From NCBI GenBank assembly GCA_963849325.1, contig CAWKHF010000003.1, positions 96,001 through 160,000 on the forward strand: a DNA stretch of 64,000 bases, given 5' to 3'. Each line of letters opens with the position of its first letter. Position 1 is the first letter of the stretch. The notes below the pieces were generated by a model. The model made no database searches. It worked only from the letters and a program-made list of their open reading frames with translations, and had not been told where the DNA came from. The DNA comes from an uncultured Planctomycetota bacterium (lineage in GTDB: Bacteria > Planctomycetota > Planctomycetia > Gemmatales > Gemmataceae). The position numbers and the translations under genes were made by a program. Below, in pieces: positions 2,957 to 64,000 of the stretch.

Positions 2957-5641
2957 GTGTTGTCCGCCACCTCGCGTCGTATCCTGTTCGGCTATCCTCT
3001 CATCCTTGTCGCCGTCCTCTGTGCCACGGCCGCCGAACCGGCCGCTCGGCCCACGGCCAAGCAGATCGCCCAGTGGGTCCAGCAACTGGGGGACAACAGC
3101 TTCGCCGTGCGCGAGGACGCCTCGAAAAAGCTGTGGATGGCCGGCGACGCCGCCGAGTCCGCGCTGGAGGAAGCCGCCAAGAGCGAGGACGCCGAGGTAG
3201 TCCGCCGGGCGCACGACATCCTGGACAAGTTCAAGTGGGGCATCTATCCCGACACGCCCGCCAACGTCGTCGCCCTCATTCAGGCTTACCAATCCACCGA
3301 TGTCAACGCTCGGGCGGGGATCGTGCAACGACTTCTCCAAAGCGGCCCGCACGGTTTGCAAGCCGTCCTCAAGATCGCCAAGGCCGAGACCGACCCCAAC
3401 CAACGTAAGGCTCTCGGTCAACTGGCTTCGAGCAAGCTGCCGGCCGCGCTTCCGCAAGTCCTGGAAGAGGGCAAGTTCGAGAGGTTCGAGGCCCTTCTCG
3501 AGATGGGCCATGACAGCGAGGTCATTGACCACAATCCGTACACCGCCTACTGGTTGCTGCGCGGCAAGCTGGACCCGCGCATCGCCCACTTCCGCTCCCG
3601 GCTGGACAAACATCCCAAGGACCAGCGCAGCGCCGAGACGCTCGCCTACCTCTATCGAGCGCGGGGCGATCTCAAGGAAGCCGCCGCCGCGGCCGAGAAG
3701 GCGGGGAACGTCGATCTGCTTGAAGGCATCCTCTACGAGGCGGCTGATTGGAAGGCGCTGGCGGCGCGTCCCGATCGTTTGCCGGAGGCGGTGGGGACCG
3801 TCGATCACACGGCCTACCGCGCGGCCTACGCGCGGCTGGCCGGTGATCGGAAGGAATTCCAAGCGGCATGCGCCGAATTGCAGAAAGTGGCTCAGAAGGA
3901 GCCGCAGAGCGACGTTTGGCGATTCGCCGTCGCCAAGGCGTTCCTCCTCAACGACCGCCCCGCCGACGGCCTGGCGCTGTTAGCGAAAGTGCCCGAACGC
4001 CATCCGATCCTCTTCGAGATCCTCTGCGCTCGACTCCAATACCGCGAGGCGATGGCGCTGGTGGACCAATCCCGTCCCGCCGACAGCAAGGAACAGAAAC
4101 AGCTGGAAATCCTCAAGGCGCGGACGCTGTATCAGCTGGGGGAGAAGGACAAGGCGCAGGCATTGTTCACCCGTCTCGCCGCGCAGATCAAAGAAGGCGT
4201 TGATCTCTCGTGGGTCGAAAGTTTGCTGGAGGCGGAATACAAAGTCGGCTTGAAAGAACAGGCCTTCGAGCATTGCGCCAAGGCCATGAGCGACGGGCTG
4301 CCGAAAGAGATGAAGGTCATCCAGGCTGGGGCTTATCTGAAGCCATTCTTTCCTGATCGAGCCGAGACGGCCGAGGTATGGTGGGAACTGCTGCGCCTGA
4401 AGCACAAGGACGAAACCAACGCCTCGATTCTGAAGCGACTGCGCGACCTGATGGAGGGCAAGGTCGCCGCCAAGGAAGTCAAGGCATGCATCGAGGAGGC
4501 GGATCGGGCGCTGGCCGTCCCGCAGGAGCGGAAGGTTCCGAGAGACACGGCCCGCCGGCGTCAGGTGTGGGCCGGCGCCGTCGCGGCTGTCGGACTCGAT
4601 GACTTGGCCCATTCGCTCCTGGAGAAAGCTGGTACTCCCGAAGCGTTGCTTCGTCTCGGTGATCTTCTGGCTGGTAAAAAACAGTGGGCGAAGGCGGCCG
4701 AACGCTATCGCCAAGCATGGGACAAGGACCGGATCCACGACGATACCGTACCGGAGGGAAAGCAGCTCGATCCCTTGCCATTGTTCCTCGCCGGCTCGGC
4801 CCTGGTGAAAGCCGGCCAGAACACCGAGGGGAAAAAGCTCATCGAACAAGCGCATTGGGTGTTGTTGGGCGATGCGTCGGGGCGGTACGCCTTTCTCCAA
4901 GCCCTGACGAAGCGCGGGCATGGGGAGGCCGTGCGGCGCGAGACGGACTTGCTGCTTCGCGTCAGCGAGCCGAACTCGTACTATTGGGGTGAGGCCGCGC
5001 GTCGCCTGGGTATCGCCGCCCTCGCTCGCAAGGACTACCGCCAGGCCGCCGAGGCTTTCGAGCAATCGATGCTGCGCTGCCTCAACACGTACACGCACTT
5101 CGTACAATCGGGCGCCTACGCCGGGGTGCCGGCCCAGGTGCATCAACTGCGCGCCCGCGCCTTGCTCATCGCCGGGAAGTTCGAGCAGGCCCAACAGCAA
5201 ATCGATCTGGCGCTGGCCGCCTCGCCGGGCAACGTCGAACTGCCGATCGCTCTGGTACCGGATTTGGAACGATGCGGCCACAAGAAAGAGGCGGCGGCGT
5301 TGTTCGATCGCTGCTTCGCGGCCTACGAGAAAGTGTGTGAGGATTATCCGCGCTGCGCCTGGGCCCACAACTCGGCGGCATGGATGGCCGCTTGCTGCCG
5401 CCGCCATCTCGACAAAGCTCTGGAGCACGCTCGCAAGGCCGTCGAGCTGGCCCCAACCACGGCCGGGTATTTGGACACGCTCGCCGAGGTCTACTTCCAG
5501 CGCGGTGAGAAGGACAAGGCCGTCGCCTTGCAAAAGCGTGTCGTCGAATTGGACCCGAAGAAGGTGTATTTCCGCAAGCAATTGCGGCGGATTGAGTCCG
5601 GCGATCCCTCCGCGGAAAGGCCGGCGGAAGACGAGGAGTGA
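2957..5641 (+). CDS. Secreted HEAT/TPR-repeat protein
   Basis: Signal peptide, LGDNSFAVREDASKKL HEAT-like start, C-terminal TPRs (AHNSAAW...YLDTLAEVYFQRGEKDKAV). Confidence 0.8.
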   Translation: MLSATSRRILFGYPLILVAVLCATAAEPAARPTAKQIAQWVQQLGDNSFAVREDASKKLWMAGDAAESALEEAAKSEDAEVVRRAHDILDKFKWGIYPDTPANVVALIQAYQSTDVNARAGIVQRLLQSGPHGLQAVLKIAKAETDPNQRKALGQLASSKLPAALPQVLEEGKFERFEALLEMGHDSEVIDHNPYTAYWLLRGKLDPRIAHFRSRLDKHPKDQRSAETLAYLYRARGDLKEAAAAAEKAGNVDLLEGILYEAADWKALAARPDRLPEAVGTVDHTAYRAAYARLAGDRKEFQAACAELQKVAQKEPQSDVWRFAVAKAFLLNDRPADGLALLAKVPERHPILFEILCARLQYREAMALVDQSRPADSKEQKQLEILKARTLYQLGEKDKAQALFTRLAAQIKEGVDLSWVESLLEAEYKVGLKEQAFEHCAKAMSDGLPKEMKVIQAGAYLKPFFPDRAETAEVWWELLRLKHKDETNASILKRLRDLMEGKVAAKEVKACIEEADRALAVPQERKVPRDTARRRQVWAGAVAAVGLDDLAHSLLEKAGTPEALLRLGDLLAGKKQWAKAAERYRQAWDKDRIHDDTVPEGKQLDPLPLFLAGSALVKAGQNTEGKKLIEQAHWVLLGDASGRYAFLQALTKRGHGEAVRRETDLLLRVSEPNSYYWGEAARRLGIAALARKDYRQAAEAFEQSMLRCLNTYTHFVQSGAYAGVPAQVHQLRARALLIAGKFEQAQQQIDLALAASPGNVELPIALVPDLERCGHKKEAAALFDRCFAAYEKVCEDYPRCAWAHNSAAWMAACCRRHLDKALEHARKAVELAPTTAGYLDTLAEVYFQRGEKDKAVALQKRVVELDPKKVYFRKQLRRIESGDPSAERPAEDEE

Positions 5642-5647
5642 GGCAAC

Positions 5648-6313
5648 TCAGTGCGGGGGTGTCGAAAGGGAAGCTCCGCCCCCGTCCGGTGCGAGACCGT
5701 CGGTCGAGATCCCCTGTTGACGGAGCTGGGCTTTGACAACGGTGTCGAAACATTTCGGACAGATACCGTGGCTGAAGCGAGCGTCCGAATGCTCGCCGAT
5801 GTATTCCTCGACCCGCTGCCAGTAGTTGGAGTCGTTGCGGATACACTTGCAGTAGCAGCAAATCGGCAGCAGTCCTTGCAGCTGCTTGACTCGCTTGAGC
5901 GCCTCCTCCAGCTCCCGAACTCGTTCCGCCAAGCTCTGTTGCAGGGCCGTCATGCGCAGACCGACGTTGACGCGCGCTTGCAGCTCATCGCGGTCGAACG
6001 GCTTGGTAATGTAATCGTCGGCCCCGCTCTCCAGGCCGGCAACGATGTCTTTCTTGTCAATGCGAGCGGTCAACAAAATGACGTAGATGGATCGCTTGGT
6101 CGGATCTTCGCGCAGACGGCGGCAGACCGACAGGCCGTCCATGCGCGGCATCATCCAATCGAGGATGGCCAACTGCGGCGTGTCCGCGCGTTCCAGGACT
6201 TCGTAGGCCGAGGAGCCATCGGTCGTCACGATGACCTGATGGCCCCACTTGCGCAGAGTCAATTCCAGGGTGCGGCGCGAGATCGGGTCGTCTTCGGCGA
6301 TAAGAATGTCCAT
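5648..6313 (-). CDS. Response regulator with Cys-rich C-terminal domain
   Basis: ILIAEDD, LAILDWMMPRMDG, GADDYITKPF; tail PICCYCKCIR...FSHGICPKC. Confidence 0.9.
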   Translation of the reverse strand: MDILIAEDDPISRRTLELTLRKWGHQVIVTTDGSSAYEVLERADTPQLAILDWMMPRMDGLSVCRRLREDPTKRSIYVILLTARIDKKDIVAGLESGADDYITKPFDRDELQARVNVGLRMTALQQSLAERVRELEEALKRVKQLQGLLPICCYCKCIRNDSNYWQRVEEYIGEHSDARFSHGICPKCFDTVVKAQLRQQGISTDGLAPDGGGASLSTPPH

Positions 6314-50802: not shown

Positions 50803-52150
50803 TGAACGACAACTATAATTCCCGCCCGACGACACTTAGAATTCCCGATCCAGTCCGACGACTCGCGCTCGTCAACGACACTTAGAATTCCTGATTTGCG
50901 AGCCACTGTTCATCATCGAGTGCCCTTCCTCCCGGAGGTTCTCGATGATCACCGATCAGCAAGTGCGGAGGCTCCGGCACCTCCAACGGCAAGGAGTTGC
51001 CAAAGAGGTCGCCGCAGCCCGCGTTGGCATGGATGCCAAGTCGGCGCGAAAATATCGCCGCCTCGGCCAGCTGCCCAGCGAGGTCATCAGCATGGACAGG
51101 AACTGGCGAACACATCCGGATCTCTTCGCCGAGGTCTGGCCCGAACTCGAAGAGAAGTTGCAACGCCACCCCGGACTGCAAGCCAAGACCCTTTTTGTCG
51201 CGGTTGCCGCTGGAGAAGAGTTGGCCGGCGTTGGATTTGAAGCGGCTGCCGGCCAAAGTGGTGCAGCAGGCGCGGACGCTGTTGGAGGGATCGTTTCTGG
51301 ATCGCTGCGAGAACGTGCTGGTGTTTGGGCCGCCGGGTTCGGGGAAGACTCATTTGCTCTCCGCGGTATCTCAAGAGCTGGTGCGTTCGGGCCGGCGTGT
51401 GCTGTCGCGAAAGTGCAGCCTACTGGTGCAGGATCTGTTGGTGGCCAAGCGGGATCTGAAATTGTCGTCGCTGCTCAAGCGTCTGGCTGGCTACGAAGCG
51501 TTGCTCGTGGACGAACTGGGCTATGTGCAACAAAGCCGAGAGGAGATGGAGGTTCTGTTCACGCTGCTGGCGGAGCGTTACGAGCGGGGCAGCGTGCTGC
51601 TGACGAGCAACCTGCCGTTCTCGGGCTGGGAAGCGATCTTCAAGGATGCGATGACGACGGCGGCGGTGATCGATCGACTGGTCCACCACAGCGTGATCGT
51701 CGAGTTGAACCTGCCGAGCTACCGCGTGGAGCAAGCCAAGAAGGCCAAGCAAAGTCGTCCGTCCGAGGCAGGAGAATCGGCAAGCGGCCCGGAGCCAGGG
51801 AAGCCGTAGGCAAAAGTCGCGACGCGGGGCGTGTACAAGTTGGATTTTCGGAGGCATAGCTCGGGTGTCCGATGGGGGAAAGCGGTCCCCACCACCGAAG
51901 TGGTGGAGGACCGCTGTGGTGATGCCCATCGGCCCACCGTCGGCCGGGTTATCCCTTGGTCGGGTTGCGTCCCCGCAGAGCCCGCCTCCGTTTCACCCGG
52001 CGCGAAGAGGGTAGCCGCAAGGGGGCCAGCCGAGCAAGCCCGACTGACGTGCGAATCGGGAAAAGTAAGTGTCGTTGGACCCCTGCTTGCCGGGAGGGCA
52101 ATCGGGAATTCTAACTGTCGCGGGTAGGGAAAAATAAGTGTCGCTTGACA
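50800..52150 (+). mobile_element. IS21-family element with internal deletion (istA 5' part joined to istB 3' part)
   Basis: TG...CA ends; three cgacacttagaattccc-type repeats at each end; IstA N-terminus (GMDAKSARKY...LQAKTLF) joined to IstB (GPPGSGKTHL, VDELGY, LTSNLPF, IDRLVHH). Confidence 0.92.
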
Positions 52151-52439
52151 GGCGGTTCTGATGATGGGGGCGGTTTCCGGGACCACGCCGACCCTGGACG
52201 TGAAGATGCAGGAGTCGGACGACGACACCACCTGGACCGACATCACCGGAGCCACCTTCACCGAGGTGACCGCGACCGACCAGGAGCAGCGAATCCGCTT
52301 CCTCCGCTCGAAGCGGTACTGCCGAGCATTCGCGACCATTGGCGGCACTACCCCGAGCTTCGACGCCGCGGTGGAAGTCCTGGCCCAGGCGAAGTACGTC
52401 GGCCAGGGCGGCGGCTACGACCGCTCGCCGGCGGCGTAA
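52151..52439 (+). pseudogene. Phage capsid cement/decoration-like gene, 5' truncated
   Basis: GTTPTLDVKMQESDDDTTWTDITGATFT...KRYCR resembles Bbp16-like genes that follow major capsid genes. Confidence 0.6.
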
Positions 52440-52471
52440 TCGGTCGCTGGGCAACCATCTCCTTGGTTGGG

Positions 52472-52507
52472 GCCAGTCGTCTGCGGCAAGGCGGCTGGCT
52501 CCTTTTT
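52472..52507 (+). terminator. Intrinsic terminator-like hairpin
   Basis: gccagtcgtc / ggcggctggc stem followed by tccttttt. Confidence 0.5.
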
Positions 52508-52522
52508 CATGCGGAGGCGGCG

Positions 52523-53362
52523 ATGGACGGCGGATTCCCCGACTTCACCCAGCCGATGGATATGGAGCAGTTCGCGGGCTTCACCCTGGATTCCCTGGCC
52601 CCACAAGCCAGAGCCTTGATCGAGAAGTACCTGGGCCGGAAGATCATGCAGGACACATACACCGAGTTCTACGCCGGCACGGGCCGTCAGCTCCTCGTCT
52701 TGCGGCAGCGGCCGGTCCAGTCCATCCCGTCGCTCTACGTGGACGAACTCGCGTATTGGGGGGACGCTCCAGGCTTCTTCGACAATTCCACCCTGCTCGT
52801 CGAGGGGACCGACTTCGCCCTGGACCGGGACCAGTCGGACGGCTCCTCCCGCTCGGGCCTGGTCTACAAGATCAACGGCTACTGGCCCCGGCCCGTTACG
52901 CAGGCCTACGGAGAGATCACACCGGCTTTCGGACGCATCGGCAACATCAAGGTCACCTACGTCGCCGGCTACGAGACAGAGCCGCACGAGGAGGTCTTCT
53001 CCCGAATCGACTGTACCCGCTGTGCGAACTGCTGCAAGACGATCCAGCCGGGCTTCACCGAAGAGGATGTTTTCAGGATCGCAGCCCATCTGGGCGTGTC
53101 CGAGGAGAGCTTCATCGCCTCCTACCTGGAGATCGACCCGGAAGAAGGCGATTATCGGACCAGGGGAACCCCGTGCCCGTTCCTCGGCGGGGATGATCGC
53201 TGCACCATCTACGAGGTGAGGCCCGAGGCGTGCCGGGACTTCCCGCACACGGACAAGGAGGAATTCACGAGGAGAGTCTATCTCCACGCGGCGAACACGC
53301 TGTCCTGCCCGGCGGCGTACCACGTAGTCAGGGGACTGCGGCGATCCCTCCGGCGTCGGTAG
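52523..53362 (+). CDS. Chimeric ORF: phage head-tail connector-like N-part fused to YkgJ-type Cys-cluster domain
   Basis: IEKYLGR..TEFY.GTG...L.LRQRPVQSI...GNIKVTYVAGY directly followed by CTRCANCC...CPFL..RCTIYEVRPEACRDFP. Confidence 0.7.
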   Translation: MDGGFPDFTQPMDMEQFAGFTLDSLAPQARALIEKYLGRKIMQDTYTEFYAGTGRQLLVLRQRPVQSIPSLYVDELAYWGDAPGFFDNSTLLVEGTDFALDRDQSDGSSRSGLVYKINGYWPRPVTQAYGEITPAFGRIGNIKVTYVAGYETEPHEEVFSRIDCTRCANCCKTIQPGFTEEDVFRIAAHLGVSEESFIASYLEIDPEEGDYRTRGTPCPFLGGDDRCTIYEVRPEACRDFPHTDKEEFTRRVYLHAANTLSCPAAYHVVRGLRRSLRRR

Positions 53363-53525
53363 GACGCACCCCTCTCATCATCAATGATAGATCTTCCCCG
53401 CCACAGTCAGTCCCTTTCTTCGAGCAAATCTCGAACAGGGCAGCGTTACCGGGATACCCTCATCTTGCAGGGCTTCCCTCGTGGCAGGGCGGCTGCCACC
53501 TATCCGCGACCCAGCACCTTCTCAA

Positions 53526-53920
53526 TCAGCCTCCGATCAGAATTCGGCTGGCGCCGTAGTCCTCGACGAACGGCACCTTCTTGGCATAGAAGAAGCACAA
53601 CGACGCTTCGGGACGAAGGTGGCCAGCGAAGCAGTCAAGAAGCGCTCGGTGGTTCTGGTGGTCCTGAACCCAGTCGGCCTTGAAACCCATCAACTTTTTC
53701 GCTTGGGCTTCACGGTCAATCTGCACGTCGAGCGCATGTTGCTCACCTAGCTTGGCCATCTCCTCGATCAGCATCCACGCGAACGGAATGGCCGCTGCCG
53801 AGTACGGTGGATGCCGGAGCGGGGTTGCGGCGAAGTGTCCATGAGCGCAGTCAGGGCCGCGGTTGTAGGGGTGATCCTTGGTCTTCGTGTACTCGAACGG
53901 GGCCATGAAGCCGACACGGG
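53526..53920 (-). pseudogene. Internal fragment resembling the N-terminal domain of large RecD-like helicases
   Basis: FMAPFE...HPY...HPPYSAAAIPFAWML...WVQ...SLCFFYAKKVPFVED..RILIG; no native start or end. Confidence 0.5.
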
Positions 53921-54149
53921 AGTAGGTCAGAAAGATGCTCTTGAGCAACAGGCCGAGAATGCCCCCGGAGACCGAGGCAAAGCCGCATGGTGTAGTATAG
54001 CCGCTGGTGCCGGAACGTCACCGCAAGGCCATTTCGCACAAGGAGCTTTCCCGATTGGAGAAGGAGGGGCGAGGGTTGGACGAACAGCTTCAAGAGGTGA
54101 GCAAGCGGAAAGACCACTCGTTCAGGATCAGCTCTCCGGACCCTCCGGC

Positions 54150-54635
54150 GTCACCTGGTCTTACAGCCAGCTGACCACCTTCATGCGGTGCCCGCTGCAG
54201 CACTTCTTCCGCGATCTGCTCCGGCTGCCGGAACGGTCCACGTCCGGTCCCCTGGCCCTCGGTTCCGCCGTCCATCAGGCCCTGGCACGGTTCCACCGCT
54301 CGGTACAGCAGGGCCGGCCGATCCCACCCCCCGCAGTACGCGACGCTTTCCTGGCGTCCTGGAAGGAGCGGCTGGTGGTAGCCCCACAGCGGGGCGAACC
54401 GCTGGTCGCCAAGTACCGCAACCCCGACAAGCTGCTGGCTTCGATCCCCTTCGCCGAGAAGCTCAAGAGCCTCCCCCGGCTACCGTTCGTGGGTGAACTC
54501 TCATTCCGGGACATCATAGACGTGCTGAAACGGCAACGCCGGTTCTTCACCGCCCCGGAGCGGAAGCTCATCGACCTGACCTCCCAATACCTTGAATACA
54601 AGATCGCCACCATCTCCCGTTCGGCGGGTTCCTGA
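54150..54635 (+). pseudogene. PD-(D/E)XK (RecB/Cas4-like) N-terminal fragment fused to an unrelated tail
   Basis: SYSQLTTFMRCPLQHFF...GSAVHQAL; nuclease core motifs absent. Confidence 0.6.
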
Positions 54636-57895: not shown

Positions 57896-58076
57896 GGATT
57901 TCGGGTTTCTCGCGTAGCGGGGCACACAGTTCGTTGTCCTCGTCGCCGTGGCAGCCGTGACAGAAAAGGAGATGGCCGGCCAACAGCAGAAACCCCAGCC
58001 AGCCTCCCCAGCGCGTGAGGCGAGCTTTGTGGCGAGCGAGGGAGGGCGACGGGTTCGGCGAGGTAGCGATCGTCAT
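57819..58076 (-). CDS. Small hypothetical protein; C-terminus runs into the hairpin
   Basis: ATGA overlap with upstream hydrolase; TM plus HLLFCHGCHGDEDNEL. Confidence 0.5.
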   Translation of the reverse strand: MTIATSPNPSPSLARHKARLTRWGGWLGFLLLAGHLLFCHGCHGDEDNELCAPLREKPEIRNSTSSISRDAQRSAILSRSAARRG

Positions 58077-58972
58077 TTTTTCAGCGTCTCATCGAAAAAG
58101 TCGAGCATCGCGGCGATGTTCTGGAGTAGTTTGTCGCCGCGCCAACCGTGGCCTTCTCCGGCGACCGGCAGCACCCGCGCGGCGACTCCCGCCTTCTTCA
58201 GTTTATCGGCCAGATCCTGCGATTGCTGGAACGGTACGGTACGGTCCTCCGTGCCATGCACGAACAGGATCGGGGCGGCGTGCTTGCCGGCGTAGGTTAT
58301 CGGCGACGCTTTCTTGTACGCCTCCGGCTTTTCCTGCGGCGTGCCCCCCAGCAGCGGAACGAGGTGGTCCGCCAACACTTCCTTGCCCCACACCGGCTGC
58401 GTCAAATCGGTCGGCCCGAAGAAACTGACGACCGCCTGCACGGCGCTGGACTGATCGGCGTTGCCGCCGTGGCCCTCCAGTCCGTCGTCCGGGCGCGTGA
58501 CGCCGAGCAGACAGGCCAGATGAGCGCCAGCCGAGAAACCAACGACGCCGATCCGCCGAGGATCGACGCGATAGCGGACGGCGTTGGCCCGCAGCCAGCG
58601 AACGGCCGCCTTGCAGTCCTCGATCGGGGCCGGAAAGCGATCCTTGGGAGCGAGGCGATAATCGGGACTGACGGCGACGTATCCTCGGCCGGCAAGGGTG
58701 AGGATGGTCTGCCTCATCTGCTGGCGATCGCCGCCGACCCAGCCGCCAGCGTGGATGCACAGCACGGCGGGAAAAGACCCTTCCCCCGCGAGGGGCATGG
58801 CCAGGTCCAGCTTCAATTTCGTGGTCCCGCCCTTGCCGAAGACCACGTCGCTTTCCAGCCGGACCTCCGGCCGGTGTTCCTGCCCGTCCGCCGAGAGCGG
58901 CACGGTCCCGCCCATCAGGACGGCGGCCAGAGAAGCGAAACGCAGCATACGCGAACCTGGACGCATCGGCAC
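58073..58972 (-). CDS. Alpha/beta hydrolase (esterase/lipase)
   Basis: IHAGGW, DYRLAP, GFSAGAHL, HGTEDRTVP, GEGHG. Confidence 0.92.
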   Translation of the reverse strand: MPMRPGSRMLRFASLAAVLMGGTVPLSADGQEHRPEVRLESDVVFGKGGTTKLKLDLAMPLAGEGSFPAVLCIHAGGWVGGDRQQMRQTILTLAGRGYVAVSPDYRLAPKDRFPAPIEDCKAAVRWLRANAVRYRVDPRRIGVVGFSAGAHLACLLGVTRPDDGLEGHGGNADQSSAVQAVVSFFGPTDLTQPVWGKEVLADHLVPLLGGTPQEKPEAYKKASPITYAGKHAAPILFVHGTEDRTVPFQQSQDLADKLKKAGVAARVLPVAGEGHGWRGDKLLQNIAAMLDFFDETLKK

Positions 58973-59097
58973 TCCTCCTTGAGCGAGGGGCGGGCTTCCA
59001 TTGGCCCGTCGGCGACAAGATGGTAATATCGCCTTGACGCCGGCGAATTACAATAGAGGAGGAAGCGCGTACGCCCTTTCACCACGAGCGGACCATC

Positions 59098-61299
59098 ATG
59101 AAGCGAACGCAATCTCCGGCCGTGGCCCTCGCCGAGCGTCTGTGTCGGCCGCAGCGCATCGGCGTCTTCGGGCATCGCGGCGTAGGGAAGACCACTTTGT
59201 TGACGATGCTCTACCGCGAGGCCGTCGGCGGACGATTGCCCGAGCTGCGCCTGGCCGCCGCCGACGCTCGCACCGCGGACTATCTGTCCGACAAGGTACT
59301 ACAGCTCGAAGCCGGGAAGCCGCTGCCGGCCACGCTGGGCGAGACCGAGCTGCGCTTCCACCTGTACTGTCGCGGTACTCGCCTCGATCTGCTCTTCAAG
59401 GATTATCAGGGCGAGCACGTCGCGCTGGGCCGTCAGGAGCCGATCCGCGACTTCCTCCGCGACTGCGACGTTGTTTGGCTCTGCCTCGACGTTCCCGTGG
59501 CGGATGCCTCCGCCGCCTGCCTGCAAGCGCAGCAGGAAGTCGAGCAGATGGTCGAGGACTACCTGGTCGCGGAGGCATCGGACGCCCCGCCGCGTCCGAT
59601 GGCGCTGGTGCTCACCAAGGCGGACCTGCTTCCGGGCGGGCTGGCGGACGATTCCGCCACAAACGAGGTCGTGCAGGATCTTGTGGACCGTCACTTCCGC
59701 ATGACCCGGCACACGCTGGAGCTGCACTGTCCAGGACACGCCCATTTCGCCGTCAGCAGCCTGGGTGGCTCGATGCCGGTGGGGGCAGAATCAGCGGGAT
59801 CGTTCACACCGCGTCCGGTGGGCTTGGCCGCCCCGCTGACCTGGCTGGCCGATTCCCTGCGCGCACAGGATGAGGCGCGACTGAACCAACTCTGGAACCT
59901 GGCCGGCCGCGACGTGCGTCTCCTCGAACGCTGCGTGGCGGCGTTCGCCCGTCGCTATCCCGGCACTCCCGCCGCTGCGACCTTCCAGCGCCGTCTGCGC
60001 GCCTTGCGACGACAGCGCCTGCGGCGACGGACTTTCGCCGCTGCTCTGACGGCGGCCTGTCTGTTGCTGTCGGCGTGGACCTACGATGCCTGGGGCGAAC
60101 AGCGCGCCGCCCGCTTCGCCGCCGACAACGCCGACGATCCCGTGGCCGTGCGGTACCATTGGCTCTCCTATCAATCCTGGCACCCCACGCGCCATCTCCT
60201 CCGTCCAGCCGCCGCGCGGGCAGAACAGCAGCGCTTGCGGGAGCTGGACGAACGCATCCACGCCAGGCAGTACGAGGAGAGCCTGACGGAACTCCGCCGT
60301 CGCGCCGCCGACCCCGACGCCGATGTGGAGGCGGTGTGGCAGCAGTTGCAGACCTTCCACCGCGACTTCCCGGAGCACAACGTTGACAGCGAATGGCAGC
60401 AGTTCCGCGCCACCCTCAAGGAGCGCCGCGATGCCGAGCGCGAGCGCCGCGCCGAATTGGCGTTCGCCGAGTTGGAGCGAACCGGAGAACAAAGCGATCT
60501 CTCCGCCCGCATCGATCGGGCTGACCACTTCCTCCATGACTTCGCTGGGACCGCCCACGAGTCGGAGGTACGCCGTCGCCGCGCCGCCTGCCTGTTGCGC
60601 CTCGATGAACGCGACGTGGAATCGGCGCGCGCTTACTCGGCCGGCCAACCGCTCAACTTCCAGACGCGGCGCCAGCGCTATCAGCGTTACCTCGAACGTC
60701 ATCCCGATGGTGCGTTCGTCAAGGAAGCGAACGAGGCGCTGAAGAACATCGACGCCGATTGGGACCGGCACGACTTTCGGGCCGTGCGCGATCATTTCCA
60801 GGCACATCCCGGCGACGTGAAGGAACTTCAGGTGCTATGCCGCAGTTATCTCGCCGTCCATCCGCACGGCCGCTTCCGCGACGCCGCCCACGATCTGCTG
60901 CGCTGGACCGAGCGCGTTACCCAACCGGGCGAATATCGCGTCGTCCTCAAAGGCGGCAGCTTCGATCGCAAGGTCGCCCATTTCTTCAGCCGCGGGCCGT
61001 CGCTGTCGGTGGAAATCGAGGTCAACGGCGTCCGCTATGGGCCGAGCAACATCGTGGCGCGCAATTATCAACCGGAGTGGAACTACGAATTCCCGCGCCG
61101 TGTGCGCTGGAAGCTCGGCGATCGCGTGCGCATCCTCGTCACCGACAATTACTACTGGGACCGCCGCGTGGCCGATCTTTCCTCCGACGACAACGACCCG
61201 CTGGCGATACGCATGCTCGGCGGCGAGGTGAATACGGGCAAGAACAGCCTAATGTTCGAGTCGGACTTCATCATGCCGGCGATGCCGAAGATTGAGTAA
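59098..61299 (+). CDS. TRAFAC GTPase - TM - helical region - C2-like domain protein
   Basis: G1 GHRGVGKT, G2 PAT, G3 DYQG, G4 TKAD, G5 SSLG; TM FAAALTAACLLLSAW; C-terminal NYQPEWNYEF...VRILVTD. Confidence 0.85.
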   Translation: MKRTQSPAVALAERLCRPQRIGVFGHRGVGKTTLLTMLYREAVGGRLPELRLAAADARTADYLSDKVLQLEAGKPLPATLGETELRFHLYCRGTRLDLLFKDYQGEHVALGRQEPIRDFLRDCDVVWLCLDVPVADASAACLQAQQEVEQMVEDYLVAEASDAPPRPMALVLTKADLLPGGLADDSATNEVVQDLVDRHFRMTRHTLELHCPGHAHFAVSSLGGSMPVGAESAGSFTPRPVGLAAPLTWLADSLRAQDEARLNQLWNLAGRDVRLLERCVAAFARRYPGTPAAATFQRRLRALRRQRLRRRTFAAALTAACLLLSAWTYDAWGEQRAARFAADNADDPVAVRYHWLSYQSWHPTRHLLRPAAARAEQQRLRELDERIHARQYEESLTELRRRAADPDADVEAVWQQLQTFHRDFPEHNVDSEWQQFRATLKERRDAERERRAELAFAELERTGEQSDLSARIDRADHFLHDFAGTAHESEVRRRRAACLLRLDERDVESARAYSAGQPLNFQTRRQRYQRYLERHPDGAFVKEANEALKNIDADWDRHDFRAVRDHFQAHPGDVKELQVLCRSYLAVHPHGRFRDAAHDLLRWTERVTQPGEYRVVLKGGSFDRKVAHFFSRGPSLSVEIEVNGVRYGPSNIVARNYQPEWNYEFPRRVRWKLGDRVRILVTDNYYWDRRVADLSSDDNDPLAIRMLGGEVNTGKNSLMFESDFIMPAMPKIE

Positions 61300-61352
61300 T
61301 GTCCTGAGCCGAAGGCGTTGGAGGTCGTCTCTGGAAGATAGGAGAACCGGCT

Positions 61353-61712
61353 ATGCCCTTAACGATACAGCCCGAACCCGTTTCTCTCCGCATGGACGAA
61401 TGCGGGGTCATCCGCGTGGGAGACTCCCAGGTCGTACTCGACATCGTGATCCGCGCTTTTAATAACGGTGCCGACCCGGAGAGCATTGTCCACGGCTATC
61501 CCACGCTGAACCTCGCTGACGTGTACGCCGCGATCGCCTACTATCTCCGGCACCGGAAAGAAGTGGACGAGTACCTTCAGGCACGCCGAGAGGAGGCGGA
61601 GCAGCTGCGGGAGGTGATCGAGGCGAAGCAGCCGGATCGGCCCGAGTTGCGAGCGAAGTTGCTGGCCCGGAAGGCGCAGATGGAACGAGAACATGCTTCC
61701 TCTGGCAACTGA
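61353..61712 (+). CDS. DUF433 antitoxin-like protein
   Basis: IRVGDSQV.LDIV..F..GADPESIVHGYPTLNLADVYAAIAYY. Confidence 0.9.
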   Translation: MPLTIQPEPVSLRMDECGVIRVGDSQVVLDIVIRAFNNGADPESIVHGYPTLNLADVYAAIAYYLRHRKEVDEYLQARREEAEQLREVIEAKQPDRPELRAKLLARKAQMEREHASSGN

Positions 61713-62043
61713 TGAGGACGTGCATGATAACATCATCCGAGGGCTGCGCCGCCGTGAGCCGGCCCTGGATATTGTCCGAGTTGTGGACGTTGGCCTGGGT
61801 CATACGCCTGACCCGCTCATTCTGGAATGGGCGGCTGGAGAGGGGCGGATACTCGTCACCGGGGATCTAAACTCGATGGTCGGGTTCGCATGGGGCCGGG
61901 TGCAAGCGGGGCTGCTCATGCCAGGGGTGCTGGCCTTGAAGGAAAACATTGGTATCGGCAGAGTGATTGACGACATCCTCCTCGTGGCGCAATGCTACAC
62001 ACCAGAAGAGATGAAAGACGATGTCTTGTACATCCCCTTATGA
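61693..62043 (+). CDS. DUF5615 PIN-like toxin
   Basis: LATDED, PDPLILEWAAGEGRILVTGD. Confidence 0.85.
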   Translation: MLPLATDEDVHDNIIRGLRRREPALDIVRVVDVGLGHTPDPLILEWAAGEGRILVTGDLNSMVGFAWGRVQAGLLMPGVLALKENIGIGRVIDDILLVAQCYTPEEMKDDVLYIPL

Positions 62044-62109
62044 CTCGGATGGACGGGAGGTAATCCCGAGTCAACTGCCGGGTCAAGCGTGTTAAGGGGA
62101 AAGAGGGAA

Positions 62110-62157
62110 GAAGGTGCCAGGAACCTTTAAGATCGTAAAAGTTTCCTGAATCCCTTC
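62110..62157. repeat. Degenerate palindrome between convergent genes
   Basis: gaaggtgccaggaacctttt-like arm / aaaagtttcctgaatcccttc. Confidence 0.5.
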
Positions 62158-62158
62158 C

Positions 62159-62976
62159 TCACCCGAGCCGTGCTCCGCAATCTCGGCAGTGCCACTCCGT
62201 TTCGGTCATCAGCAAGCCAACCCAGAACAACGGGAAGAAAAAGACCAGCAGCAGGGCGAAGGTGATCCAGCCGGCTTGCGAGATTTGCGTCCGCGCGTAG
62301 GGCGACTCGGTGCTCCCGCAACGATCGCATTCGACGGGGCGGGGTCGTTTCTTCGGCTTGCGGCCGTGTGCGTGATGATGATGGTCGCGGTAGCAGCCGG
62401 CCGAGCAAAAGAGCGATCCACAATCGGGACAGGTCTGGACGCGCGGACGCCGGGTGATGTCTGCGCCGCACTCCAGGCAGCTTTCTCGCCGGGCCACGGG
62501 CGCCGCCTCCACAACCGGCGGCGTCTCTTCCACCAGTTCGACTTTGAGCGTGGGGACAGGGGCGCTGCCGGCAGGGATGGTTGCGGCGTTCGGCCCACCG
62601 TCGCAGCTGGATCCTCCGTGGCCAGGATCGTTTTGTTGAGGGCCGGGGCTGGGAGAGGCGTGGACGACTGAGGAATTTGCAGGCGTTGATTGCAATCGGG
62701 GCAATTCAATTTCTGACCGGCGAAACTGGCCGGTGATTCCAGCGACTTCTTGCAGCGCGGACAGCTGTAGCGAATCATTGCCTCCGGCTGGGCCAGGATG
62801 GTCCGATTGACAGCGGCGGGAGCGTTGGCCGCGGAGCGCGCCAGCAAAGGCGAGGCAGCCGCTGGCTTGATGGGGAAGACCGAGAAACAGGCGGAGCAGC
62901 GCATGTCGGGTCCAGAGGCGGATTCCGGCGTCTGGCATTGCTGTCCGCACATCGGGCAAGTGATGTTGGCGACCAT
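62159..62976 (-). CDS. Multi-Zn-ribbon protein with C-terminal LITAF-like domain (frameshift ~62600)
   Basis: CPMC/CSAC, CPRC/CPDC, CLEC..CPDC...FCSAGC, CDRC-hydrophobic stretch-HCRDC. Confidence 0.75.
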
Positions 62977-63003
62977 GAATGGGTTCCTATCGGGGCAAGG
63001 CGA

Positions 63004-63659
63004 TTAACGATGGTGCTGGGGATGAGCGTGATAGCAATGATCGCGGTAGCAGCGGGCCGAGCAGAAGAGCGACCCACAATCGGGGCAGGTCTGAACGCGC
63101 GGCCGCTGAGTGACCTCGACGCCGCACTCCAGGCAATACTCCCGTCGCACGGGAGCGGCCGGCGCAGGAAACGATGCCGGGAGCGCCGTAAGGATCGGCT
63201 CTTCCTCGGCCGGCGGACGAGGAGCGGTGCGCACGGGCGAGACAGGGACGGCGGCGCGGGCGCCTCCTCCTTGGCGAGAATGGTTTGGTTGTCCGACGGC
63301 GAAGGCGTGGAGGAAGCCTGCGGAATTTGCAGCCGCTGGCCGCAGTCAGGGCAGTTGATCTTGTGGCCGGCCTGGTCCGCTGGTGATTCCAGAGGTTTCT
63401 GGCAGCGAGCGCAGCGATAATGGATGCGTGGTGCCGGCTGAATCGAAGCGGGACGGGCTTGCGGCCTCTCCTGGACGGTGGATGTCTTTTCCGACGCCAA
63501 CGGTCGGGCTGTCAACGAGGGCGGCGATACGGACCCGCATTGAAACGCCTGAGTACACGCGGGGCACACCACCTGCTGTCCTAACGAGCGTTCCGGTACG
63601 CGGAAGCGGTGTCCGCATGCCGGACAGGCGATGTTCATGAACATGGATAAGCTCTCCAC
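63004..63659 (-). CDS. Paralogous multi-Zn-ribbon protein without LITAF (frameshift ~63240)
   Basis: CPAC/CPAC, CARC/CPDC, CLEC..CPDCGSLFCSARCYRDH. Confidence 0.75.
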
Positions 63660-63830
63660 AAGCCGAAAGGAACGAGCAGGAGTCGGACGTTATACTACCT
63701 TGGAAGCGGGGTCGAAGACAGCAAAAATCCATTCGATTCCTCACCGAGAGGAGCGATCCCCGCTGGACATCAATAGCGACGCGGCAGATCTGTCTTGGCG
63801 CTATCGGTGGAGGAGAGGTTAAATCCTTTC

Positions 63831-64000
63831 ATGATCGAACAGGCGATTTACGGAGGGCAGGATACGGGCGGTTATCGCTTCCTGGCTCGCTCTCCTGGCT
63901 TCCGCGACGATTGGCTGGCGGAGGCGGAGCGCGTGTGTACCGGCTTCGGCGAGCGGCCGGCCGGTGTCGCCTGTCCGGCCTGCGTCTTCGCGCGGCCGTT
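63831..64000 (+). CDS. GAP1-N-like (GTPase-associated protein) gene start, runs off window end
   Basis: Manual translation MIEQAIYGGQDTGGYRFLARSPGFRDDWLAEAERVCTGFGERP. Confidence 0.6.
   Translation, partial: MIEQAIYGGQDTGGYRFLARSPGFRDDWLAEAERVCTGFGERPAGVACPACVFARP

Follow-up and report, generated by a model that had tools for sequence, protein, structure and literature searches.

The locus considered here raises the question of whether a membrane-anchored GTPase and a GAP1-N2 protein encoded near each other belong to a mobile defence system or form a resident switch of the bacterial cell envelope. The two genes lie at the end of the window, that is, the whole stretch of 64,000 nucleotides (nt) that was analysed, which comes from an uncultured planctomycete of the family Gemmataceae and is located on contig C3 of an assembly of 8.16 Mb (14 contigs, 84.7% complete). 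The first gene encodes a GTPase of 733 amino acids (aa); the second, which encodes its putative GAP1-N2 partner, starts inside the window and continues into the stretch of C3 past the window end, designated L003 (position 6073 of L003 corresponds to C3:161072).

The pair represents a variant of the GAP1-N2-type DO-GTPase systems, most likely built as a transmembrane GTPase switch, and it looks like a stably inherited component of the cell envelope rather than a mobile defence system. The reading favored here, with a probability of roughly 0.55, is that the GTPase and the GAP1-N2 protein represent two halves of such a switch and are inherited vertically within one subclade of the Gemmataceae. 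Both proteins would reside in the cytoplasmic membrane, their N-termini on its inner side, and a longin+DENN-like module on the cytoplasmic side of the partner would bind the G domain and set its nucleotide state either as a guanine nucleotide exchange factor (GEF) or as a GTPase activator (GAP). On the outer side the C-terminal domain of the partner would touch the stalk or the C2 domain of the GTPase, and the tip of the C2 domain would bind a conserved self or envelope ligand, for instance a leaflet of the membrane or some part of the cell wall. In this manner the state of the envelope would be coupled to the GTP/GDP state of the protein, or the reverse.

The genes and domains involved are listed below (+, forward strand; TM, transmembrane).

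59098..61299, +: membrane GTPase gene, 733 aa, ATG start (open reading frame, Pfam PF19993, full-length homologs, AlphaFold2 model)
59146..59817, +: G domain, residues ~17–240, predicted to be cytoplasmic, with an Arf/Arl/MglA-like fold (motifs, Foldseek)
60034..60102, +: hydrophobic helix, residues ~313–335, a probable single TM segment with the N-terminus inside (Kyte-Doolittle hydropathy, Arg-rich N-flank)
60133..60927, +: helical-hairpin repeats of ~53–57 aa, residues ~346–610, a predicted extracytoplasmic stalk (model, hhalign)
60922..61296, +: C2 domain, residues 609–733 (Foldseek, profile matches, hhalign)
63831..64000, +: first part of the gene for the GAP1-N2 partner, which continues to C3:161072 in three frame pieces (PF20013)

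Homologs of the GTPase, the partner, MurB and a third gene described below were searched in 80 Gemmataceae genomes (the relatives, labelled G0xx); a wider sample comprised 200 genomes from elsewhere in the phylum, and neighborhoods were read as called genes at 10 loci (the present one and those of nine relatives). The family alignment of the GTPase contains 66 sequences. The partner was searched over the 80 relatives with a profile of its own family, at an expectation value (E) of 1e-10 or better. The Pfam cut-offs are 27 bits for PF19993 (DO-GTPase2), 24 bits for PF20013 (GAP1-N2) and 22 bits for PF00168 (C2).

The GTPase protein and its GAP1-N2 partner

The TRAFAC G domain of the 733-aa protein is intact and belongs to the DO-GTPase2 family (PF19993; 41.2 bits, E 2e-10, residues 20–206), which is matched by 63 of the 66 family members; the match to DO-GTPase1 (PF19975, 17.8 bits) is under its cut-off. 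All the G motifs are present (P-loop G25-x4-G30-K31-T32-T33, T79, D102-Y-Q-G105-E106, T173-K-x-D176 and S220) and each is retained in 59–65 of the aligned sequences, the glutamate E106 in 59 of them. A conserved Glu after the Walker B DxxG is given as a feature of the DO-GTPase family in passages of the comparative study of these systems (Kaur et al., 2020; PMC7159879). The P-loop begins at residue 25 and no zinc ribbon precedes it. The protein contains a single G domain, the locus a single GTPase gene, and this gene is the only PF19993 match in the whole assembly. Structural matches of the G domain in the PDB (Foldseek) include Arl3, Arl13B, Arf1, MglA and Rab33, while a search against NCBIfam gave P-loop-level matches and nothing more. 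The protein aligns from end to end with more than 100 homologs at 57–84% identity, and more than 400 close homologs of equal length exist, the named ones being from Gemmataceae. Among 1.84 billion cluster representatives, 308 match with an E of 1e-3 or better, and the full-length relatives among them reach as low as ~36% identity.

The AlphaFold2 model based on the family alignment (mean predicted local distance difference test score, pLDDT, of 87.6) arranges the protein as the G domain (residues 1–~240), a set of helices (244–608) and a beta-sandwich (609–733; block-mean pLDDT 85–96). The long helix that follows the G domain holds the hydrophobic segment, and short and long helices alternate over residues 348–608. 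Across the family the hydrophobic segment is uncharged (median Kyte-Doolittle 1.63, and at least 1.6 in 37 of the 66 members), and an Arg-rich stretch flanks it on the N side. Clear TM helices are found at the equivalent place in two distant homologs (G153 and G273; Kyte-Doolittle 2.30 and 1.96), and their position between head and C2 tail speaks for a protein that crosses the membrane and carries its C2 domain on the outer side, an arrangement familiar from receptor kinases. The stalk consists of at least four tandem helical-hairpin repeats, as hhalign comparison of the repeat units gave probabilities of 90%, 93% and 96% for u2-u3, u3-u4 and u4-u5, respectively. Weak YfiO/BamD-like Pfam matches appear in 5 of the 66 family members.

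The assignment of the C-terminus as a C2 beta-sandwich is well supported. Its top Foldseek matches are C2 domains, including those of Itch (2nq3, E 1.2e-4), the C2B domain of the extended synaptotagmin E-Syt (7a1r, target TM-score 0.71, root-mean-square deviation 3.2), Munc13 C2B, dysferlin C2A, cPLA2, intersectin and SMURF1, with target TM-scores of 0.59–0.71. When a profile of 16 family C-termini was compared with the PDB, 11 of the 14 matches were C2 proteins, with weak E-values; the family motif P-x-W-D/N-Y-E-F aligns to the C2 motif N-P-x-W-N-E-x-F, and a V-x-D motif at a strand end aligns as well. The Pfam C2 profile is matched by 9 of these 16 C-termini (best E 1.4e-4), the copy in the window being unmatched, and by 5 of the 66 full-length family members. 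The C2 domain linked to a kinase in G273 scores 25.5 bits, above the cut-off, and hhalign relates it to the C-terminus profile of the GTPase family with 97.3% probability (E 2e-11). Mean identity to the window copy is 64% for the C2 domain, 66% for the G domain and 0.51–0.67 for the stalk. The C2 loops of the window copy read GPS and TDNY, and many relatives have GPD and TDHD. At the positions taken as Ca ligands by analogy with synaptotagmin-type C2 domains, the acidic loop cluster is mostly replaced in the window copy, and for this reason Ca sensing is not claimed for the domain.

The same tail of TM helix, helical repeats and C2 domain occurs in other planctomycete families, on a Ser/Thr kinase head in G273 (L029 148–2169) and on a DO-GTPase2 head in G153 (L028 517–2853; C2 19.2 bits). 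The recurrence of the tail behind a kinase head is as expected of a modular domain that would face outward. G153 carries two DO-GTPase2-C2 genes in tandem. A shorter GTPase gene with an open frame of 553 aa is found in G013 (C111:22317–24688) directly before a short-form partner; it matches the G domain and the C2 end only, apparently without the helical repeats.

The open reading frame (ORF) of the partner spans 63795..64000 of the window on the + strand, with an in-frame ATG at 63831 that opens the sequence MIEQAIYG. The 68 residues encoded within the window match GAP1-N2 with 15.8 bits, under the cut-off; read into the contig as a 131-aa ORF (L003:4796–5188), the gene reaches 30.4 bits (PF20013, E 4.6e-7, profile positions 1–102 of 139) and is the single PF20013 match of the assembly. 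The partner was modelled on the intact copy of G038, a genome of the same genus (mean pLDDT 89.9 with a 58-row alignment). The model comprises, in order, a beta-beta-alpha-beta-beta-beta-alpha domain, an alpha/beta domain, a TM helix, a disordered linker and a four-helix domain. The protein has ~410 aa, the TM helix is strong (Kyte-Doolittle 2.92), the linker is variable and the C-terminal domain of ~100 aa has no family match. The ~260 aa of the cytoplasmic part are predicted to fold like longin+DENN GTPase regulators, since the structures retrieved by Foldseek include TagF (E 7e-5), folliculin (8.9e-4), DENND1A/B-Rab35 (over 318–323 columns, E 5e-3 to 9e-3), DENND10, C9orf72-SMCR8 and the longin domains of Lst4 and GATOR1. 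The TM-scores of these matches are low (0.19–0.39), and a PDB profile search with the partner family gave no meaningful match at the sequence level to any solved structure.

When the partner profile is compared by hhalign with eight canonical GAP1-N2 proteins of 640–770 aa from the same family, the alignment continues past the GAP1-N2 domain up to partner residue 209 (69.7%, E 4e-5). GAP1-M (PF20014) was found neither at the partner gene of five genomes at E 1 or better nor in protein scans; in the Atlas clusters that neighbor the partner it is present in 10–35% of the members. GAP1-C is not present, as there is no room for it. A complex prediction with the G domain (1–295) and the partner (1–265) of G038 gave a score of 0.13, compared with a mark of 0.32, which speaks neither for nor against binding.

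An earlier reading made from the letters of the window (the sequence-only reading) had described a 733-aa protein with GTPase motifs and a C2-like C-terminus, and had given the ORF at 63831 a GAP1-N identity; these descriptions hold, the last once the ORF is read past the window end. The double-GTPase arrangement it had suggested is at odds with the one G domain and one GTPase gene found, and its Ca/lipid-binding sensor is not supported, the acidic loop residues being mostly replaced. None of the three outcomes that it had named as refuting (no GAP1-N match for the second ORF, no C2 fold, no co-occurrence in relatives) was obtained.

Linkage and inheritance within the Gemmataceae

The GTPase gene occurs in 22 of the 80 relatives. 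In 12 of them the partner gene comes immediately downstream in the same orientation, less than 200 nt away (G079, G072, G046, G075, G071, G040, G030, G061 with two loci, G029, G002, G013 and G049), the intergenic gaps of the adjacent pairs being 11–160 nt. The partner is encoded on a different contig from the GTPase in eight relatives, where several of the GTPase contigs are only 2.7–3.7 kb long, and it was not found in one (G066). In the remaining genome, G069, it lies 5.3 kb downstream of the GTPase with a kinase-cyclase gene in between (L022 2099–5710, encoding a 1204-aa Ser/Thr kinase-DUF5939-adenylate/guanylate cyclase). The two genes are thus directly adjacent in most relatives whose contigs let adjacency show, in agreement with the co-occurrence anticipated by the sequence-only reading.

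MurB was found in all 80 relatives and was used to rank their relatedness to the genome studied here. Among the 30 relatives whose MurB is at least 67% identical, 21 have the GTPase gene, compared with 1 of the other 50, the lone outlier being G049, a 65%-complete assembly in which the MurB match is in pieces. The identity of the GTPase falls alongside that of MurB (GTPase/MurB, in %: G038 70/86, G079 62/75, G046 60/75, G040 55/67, G009 52/68), and together with the restriction to one clade this is the picture that vertical inheritance of a lineage-specific gene presents. In the wider sample of 200 genomes only weak matches, of 22–31% identity, were obtained, in nine genomes. Gene order is also shared: a divergent BD-FAE esterase gene stands upstream of the GTPase gene in the present genome and in G079, G075, G069, G038, G030 and G061, and RNase PH or murB is near the GTPase or the partner in several relatives.

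These data bear on the possibility that the pair constitutes a nucleoside triphosphate-dependent conflict (anti-invader) system of GAP1-N2 type, a kind of system put forward by Kaur et al. (2020) and supposed here by the sequence-only reading, in which the C2/helical module would sense an invader and the GTPase would license the response. Such systems are defined by precisely these two core families, passages of Kaur et al. (PMC7159879) describe planctomycete GAP1-N2 systems with similar TM layouts, and a toxin-antitoxin-like pair sits inside the locus studied here. This possibility is nevertheless rated as unlikely because effectors are missing, the pattern is vertical, PADLOC is essentially silent and the C2 domain is conserved. 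None of the called genes of the 10 loci is an effector, FNIII-repeat (fibronectin type III) or variable gene, the neighbors being the esterase, RNase PH, MurB, the third gene and unrelated genes. Searched with the GTPase, its partner and the third gene at E 0.01 or better, PADLOC returned a marginal PbeC match (E 0.0022) and nothing else. The GTPase gene is present in single copy, is confined to one clade and shares synteny with housekeeping genes, the putative sensor equals the G domain in conservation (64% vs 66%), and the partner is near-universal in the family (73/80).

The partner exists in two forms. Its full-length form (profile 1–~412, with the C-terminal domain) was found in 19 relatives, 18 of which are GTPase-positive (the exception is G047), and of the remaining 54 partner-positive genomes most match profile positions 1–~300 only, a span that takes in the cytoplasmic domains plus the TM helix, their ORFs being ~280–400 aa long. 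It is suggestive that the GTPase-C2 gene and the extra C-terminal domain of the partner go together in one clade. The third gene (~200 aa; in G038, L024 5857–6456) is homologous to Thermotoga TM1382 (PDB 3e57, E 5e-17), shows a weak NUDIX match (E 0.057), and is present in 58 of the 80 relatives, in 42 of these directly after the partner. In addition, the partner lies at most 2 kb from murB in the present genome and in 14 of the 73 partner-positive relatives, whose MurB identities range over 37–86%. The deepest conserved unit is therefore the partner with the TM1382-like gene, anciently near murB and independent of the GTPase.

Several observations weigh against the transmembrane switch. The partner profile matches 73 relatives compared with 22 for the GTPase; any PF19993 match is found in 40 of the 80 relatives only, and in seven GTPase-negative genomes that were read the short partner is not accompanied by a member of this GTPase family. 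The broader range indicates that the partner can work without this GTPase. The coincidence of GTPase and long partner is no statistical proof, since it concerns one clade and maybe a single event. GTPase and partner are unlinked in at least three relatives (G038, G009 and G063), and this separation is real because both contigs are long. With regard to topology, the single TM helix described by the sequence-only reading stands as an uncharged hydrophobic segment throughout the family, but in the window copy the segment is only moderately hydrophobic (Kyte-Doolittle 1.33 over 19 residues), and the proposed orientation of the GTPase, with the N-terminus inside, is deduced from the distribution of charges only.

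Such points would be accounted for if the two proteins were independent, the partner functioning with the TM1382-like (Nudix-like) gene and the GTPase-C2 protein being an envelope protein whose gene was inserted upstream in one clade. The unequal ranges (73 vs 22 of 80), the frequent position of the TM1382-like gene directly after the partner (42/58) and the unlinked pairs of G038, G009 and G063 agree with independence. It is regarded as improbable all the same, given that GAP1-N2 proteins are defined by linkage to DO-GTPases (in the passages of PMC7159879 that concern them), that the two proteins are the sole members of their families in the genome and are also neighbors, that the gaps between the genes in relatives are tight (11–160 nt), and that the extra C-terminal domain of the partner goes with the GTPase in 18 of the 19 genomes that have the long form.

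The GTPase–partner junction was broken independently in the genus of the present genome, as can be seen in G038, where each half keeps the flank it has in the window genome: the GTPase side reads RNase PH, a 358-aa gene, esterase and GTPase, and the partner side reads partner, a 372-aa gene and murB. The junction rearranged in G038 is also the site of the toxin-antitoxin-like pair in the window.

The insert, the frame breaks and the flank towards murB

In the genome studied here the GTPase and partner genes are on the same strand and 2.5 kb apart, with four genes between them, two of which are on the opposite strand (−). These genes and the divergent neighbor on the other side of the GTPase are listed below.

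58073..58972, −: BD-FAE esterase gene, divergent neighbor of the GTPase gene, given as context and not as part of the system (PF20434, 201.6 bits)
61353..61712, +: DUF433 gene, antitoxin-like, in the insert (PF04255, 31 bits, cut-off 23.6)
61693..62043, +: DUF5615 gene, PIN-like and toxin-like, in the insert (PF18480, 28.3 bits, cut-off 23.8)
62159..62976, −: zinc-ribbon gene in two overlapping frames (zinc ribbons, LITAF-like ribbon)
62775..63659, −: second zinc-ribbon gene, tandem paralog of the first (Zn_ribbon_4, 31 bits; Zn_ribbon_6, 27.2 bits)

The 2.5-kb insertion has uncoupled the two genes in this genome. The operon supposed by the sequence-only reading is not supported here, as the toxin-antitoxin-like pair and the two minus-strand genes separate the GTPase gene from the partner gene, which does run on beyond the window end. 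The DUF433 and DUF5615 genes, both over their Pfam cut-offs, overlap by 20 nt and resemble a toxin-antitoxin pair, a combination regarded as such a system. The first zinc-ribbon gene has its N-terminal ribbons in the frame 62209–62976 and a LITAF-like ribbon (26.1 bits, cut-off 23.8) in the frame 62159–62959; its paralogy with the second appears as direct repeats of 113 nt (84%) and 60 nt (73%) that are ~650 nt apart. Neither zinc-ribbon gene is read in a single frame in this assembly, and in G038 a zinc-ribbon gene is divergent from the partner gene. A search for repeats at the boundaries of the insert brought up the tandem paralogy of the zinc-ribbon genes alone; flanking repeats indicative of a mobile element, direct or inverted, were not found. 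A scan of 58900–64000 for promoters and terminators gave sites no commoner than in shuffled sequence.

The partner gene halts after 131 codons, shifts frame and returns (L003 4796–5191, part of 4912–5379, and 5249–6073), and when aligned with single ORFs of 407–502 aa in eight relatives the pieces fall successively on residues 1–~100, ~95–176 and ~175–end. The two frameshifts are most likely assembly errors (indels). Several unrelated genes of this assembly are frame-split relative to G038, and 19 of 72 orthologue-like probes taken from the loci of relatives match the assembly in more than one frame (two or three). The probes are partly redundant, and the 19 correspond to ~15 distinct genes on eight contigs (C1, C2, C4, C5, C6, C8, C9 and C12), among them seryl-tRNA synthetase. 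The assembly thus appears to contain many small indel errors, and apparent pseudogenes in this genome are not trustworthy without the reads. A search for public sequencing runs that contain the partner region, RNA runs included, listed none. All three pieces of the partner are free of in-frame stops, and their ratios of nonsynonymous to synonymous divergence (dN/dS) from G038 are 0.18, 0.13 and 0.23, compared with 0.16 for the GTPase and 0.09 for MurB, values that are rough since dS is saturated. The partner is not read as a pseudogene, considering the pervasive frame breaks, the stop-free pieces and the low dN/dS.

A module in decay, with a true partner pseudogene, a lost third gene and a pair split by insertion, would also produce a locus of this kind: the partner is in three frames, a search of the assembly found no TM1382-like gene, and the 2.5-kb insert is present. 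There is little probability in this explanation, as the frame breaks extend to essential genes (19/72 probes), the pieces of the partner remain stop-free with dN/dS of 0.13–0.23, the GTPase gene is intact, and the TM1382-like gene was likewise not found in 22 of the 80 relatives, some of which (G079, G069 and G030) retain the GTPase/partner pair.

Between the partner and murB lies a 372-aa gene on the minus strand (L003 6099–7217; C3 161098–162216) that appears frame-split with respect to G038. In many division clusters that place is occupied by ftsQ; the gene was considered as ftsQ and this identification was dropped, as it has no Pfam or PDB match. A search for the FtsZ/tubulin family in the assembly (84.7% complete) gave no match, the search control being positive in 13 of 14 genomes. 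A role of the Arf/MglA-like GTPase, the longin+DENN-like regulator and the extracytoplasmic C2 domain as an envelope-remodelling or growth switch in the FtsZ-independent budding and wall growth of Gemmataceae would be a bold and quite improbable proposal, worth testing because of the conserved murB synteny and this missing FtsZ/tubulin match.

Elsewhere in the window (52145–54635), a CxxCxxCC zinc/iron-chelating domain (56 bits) stands at the end of a 405-aa ORF with a seemingly unrelated front half, and an ORF with a PD-(D/E)XK nuclease domain (52.8 bits) comes after it. These could be further frame-fused or mobile-element genes.

Comparison with known systems

What is known of GAP1-N2/DO-GTPase systems derives from a single comparative-genomics source and consists of computational predictions; literature searches with the family names returned Kaur et al. 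alone, besides an unrelated paper on alignment methods. Passages of that study (eLife 2020; PMC7159879) report that GAP1-N2 systems occur in planctomycetes, that GTPases can have a TM helix towards the C-terminus and, after it, a beta-sandwich or another binding domain, and that TM helices are found at the C-terminus of GAP1 proteins as well; paired paralogous GTPases and/or zinc ribbons on the GTPase are described there as frequent and not universal. The terms "longin," "DENN," "Roadblock" and "C2 domain" are absent from its main text. The literature searched held no description of the outward domain as C2, of a C2 domain common to kinases, of a minimal architecture without effectors, of clade-wise vertical inheritance or of a near-universal short partner with a TM1382-like gene; the exact architecture may already be included in Figure 1-source data 1 of Kaur et al.

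The pair shares with the systems of Kaur et al. a DO-GTPase G domain with a Glu after DxxG, a GAP1-N2 gene directly downstream in relatives, predicted membrane anchoring of both proteins, a TM helix in the GTPase followed by a domain of beta-sandwich type and a C-terminal TM helix in the GAP1 protein. It differs in its lone GTPase gene, the product of which has a single G domain and lacks zinc ribbons at the N-terminus, in a partner of ~410 aa that comprises GAP1-N2 and part of the next domain without GAP1-C, and in the outward domain, which is specifically a C2 domain. FNIII-repeat protein, effector and variable genes are missing from it, and the module is vertical, syntenic and single-copy. 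The pair represents a minimal form of these systems, two membrane proteins and sometimes a third that are stably inherited in the absence of effectors, and for this reason it offers a clean setting in which to study the action of the GTPase-GAP1 core.

With the longin-DENN regulators (DENND1-Rab35, folliculin-FNIP acting with Rag, C9orf72-SMCR8 acting with Arf) and with TagF, the partner has in common its predicted fold, and its gene stands beside that of an Arf/MglA-like GTPase. It has no sequence-level match to them, the TM-scores are low, and it differs in its predicted membrane anchor with a C-terminal domain that would face outward. The bacterial MglA-MglB pair (a Ras-like GTPase and a GAP of Roadblock fold) is similar in combining a small GTPase with an adjacent regulator of longin/Roadblock type. 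MglA and MglB are polarity proteins that are soluble in the cytoplasm, whereas both proteins studied here would span the membrane and carry extracytoplasmic domains. If the partner is truly longin+DENN-like, the repertoire of prokaryotic GTPase regulators extends beyond MglB.

As regards the C2 domain, a passage of a 2012 paper (PMC3495828) states that such domains were then not known outside eukaryotes, and a literature search found no description of a bacterial or planctomycete C2 domain, phrases such as "bacterial C2 domain" being unmatched. As a lead only, the ESM Atlas contains bacterial clusters from Myxococcota and Pseudomonadota that are automatically named "C2 domain-containing protein" (scores 0.88). 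The domain described here is a well-supported bacterial C2 domain, predicted to be extracytoplasmic and common to GTPase and Ser/Thr-kinase heads in Planctomycetota. Should the proposed switch prove true, C2 domains would have a prokaryotic, extracytoplasmic history, and parts typical of eukaryotic membrane traffic would be reused in it. The domain shares the beta-sandwich fold and the P-x-W-N/D-x-x-F and V-x-D motifs with the eukaryotic C2 domains of extended synaptotagmin, Munc13, dysferlin and Itch, and it differs from them in the acidic loop positions, which the window copy does not keep, and in its predicted location outside the bacterial cytoplasmic membrane, on a GTPase or a Ser/Thr kinase.

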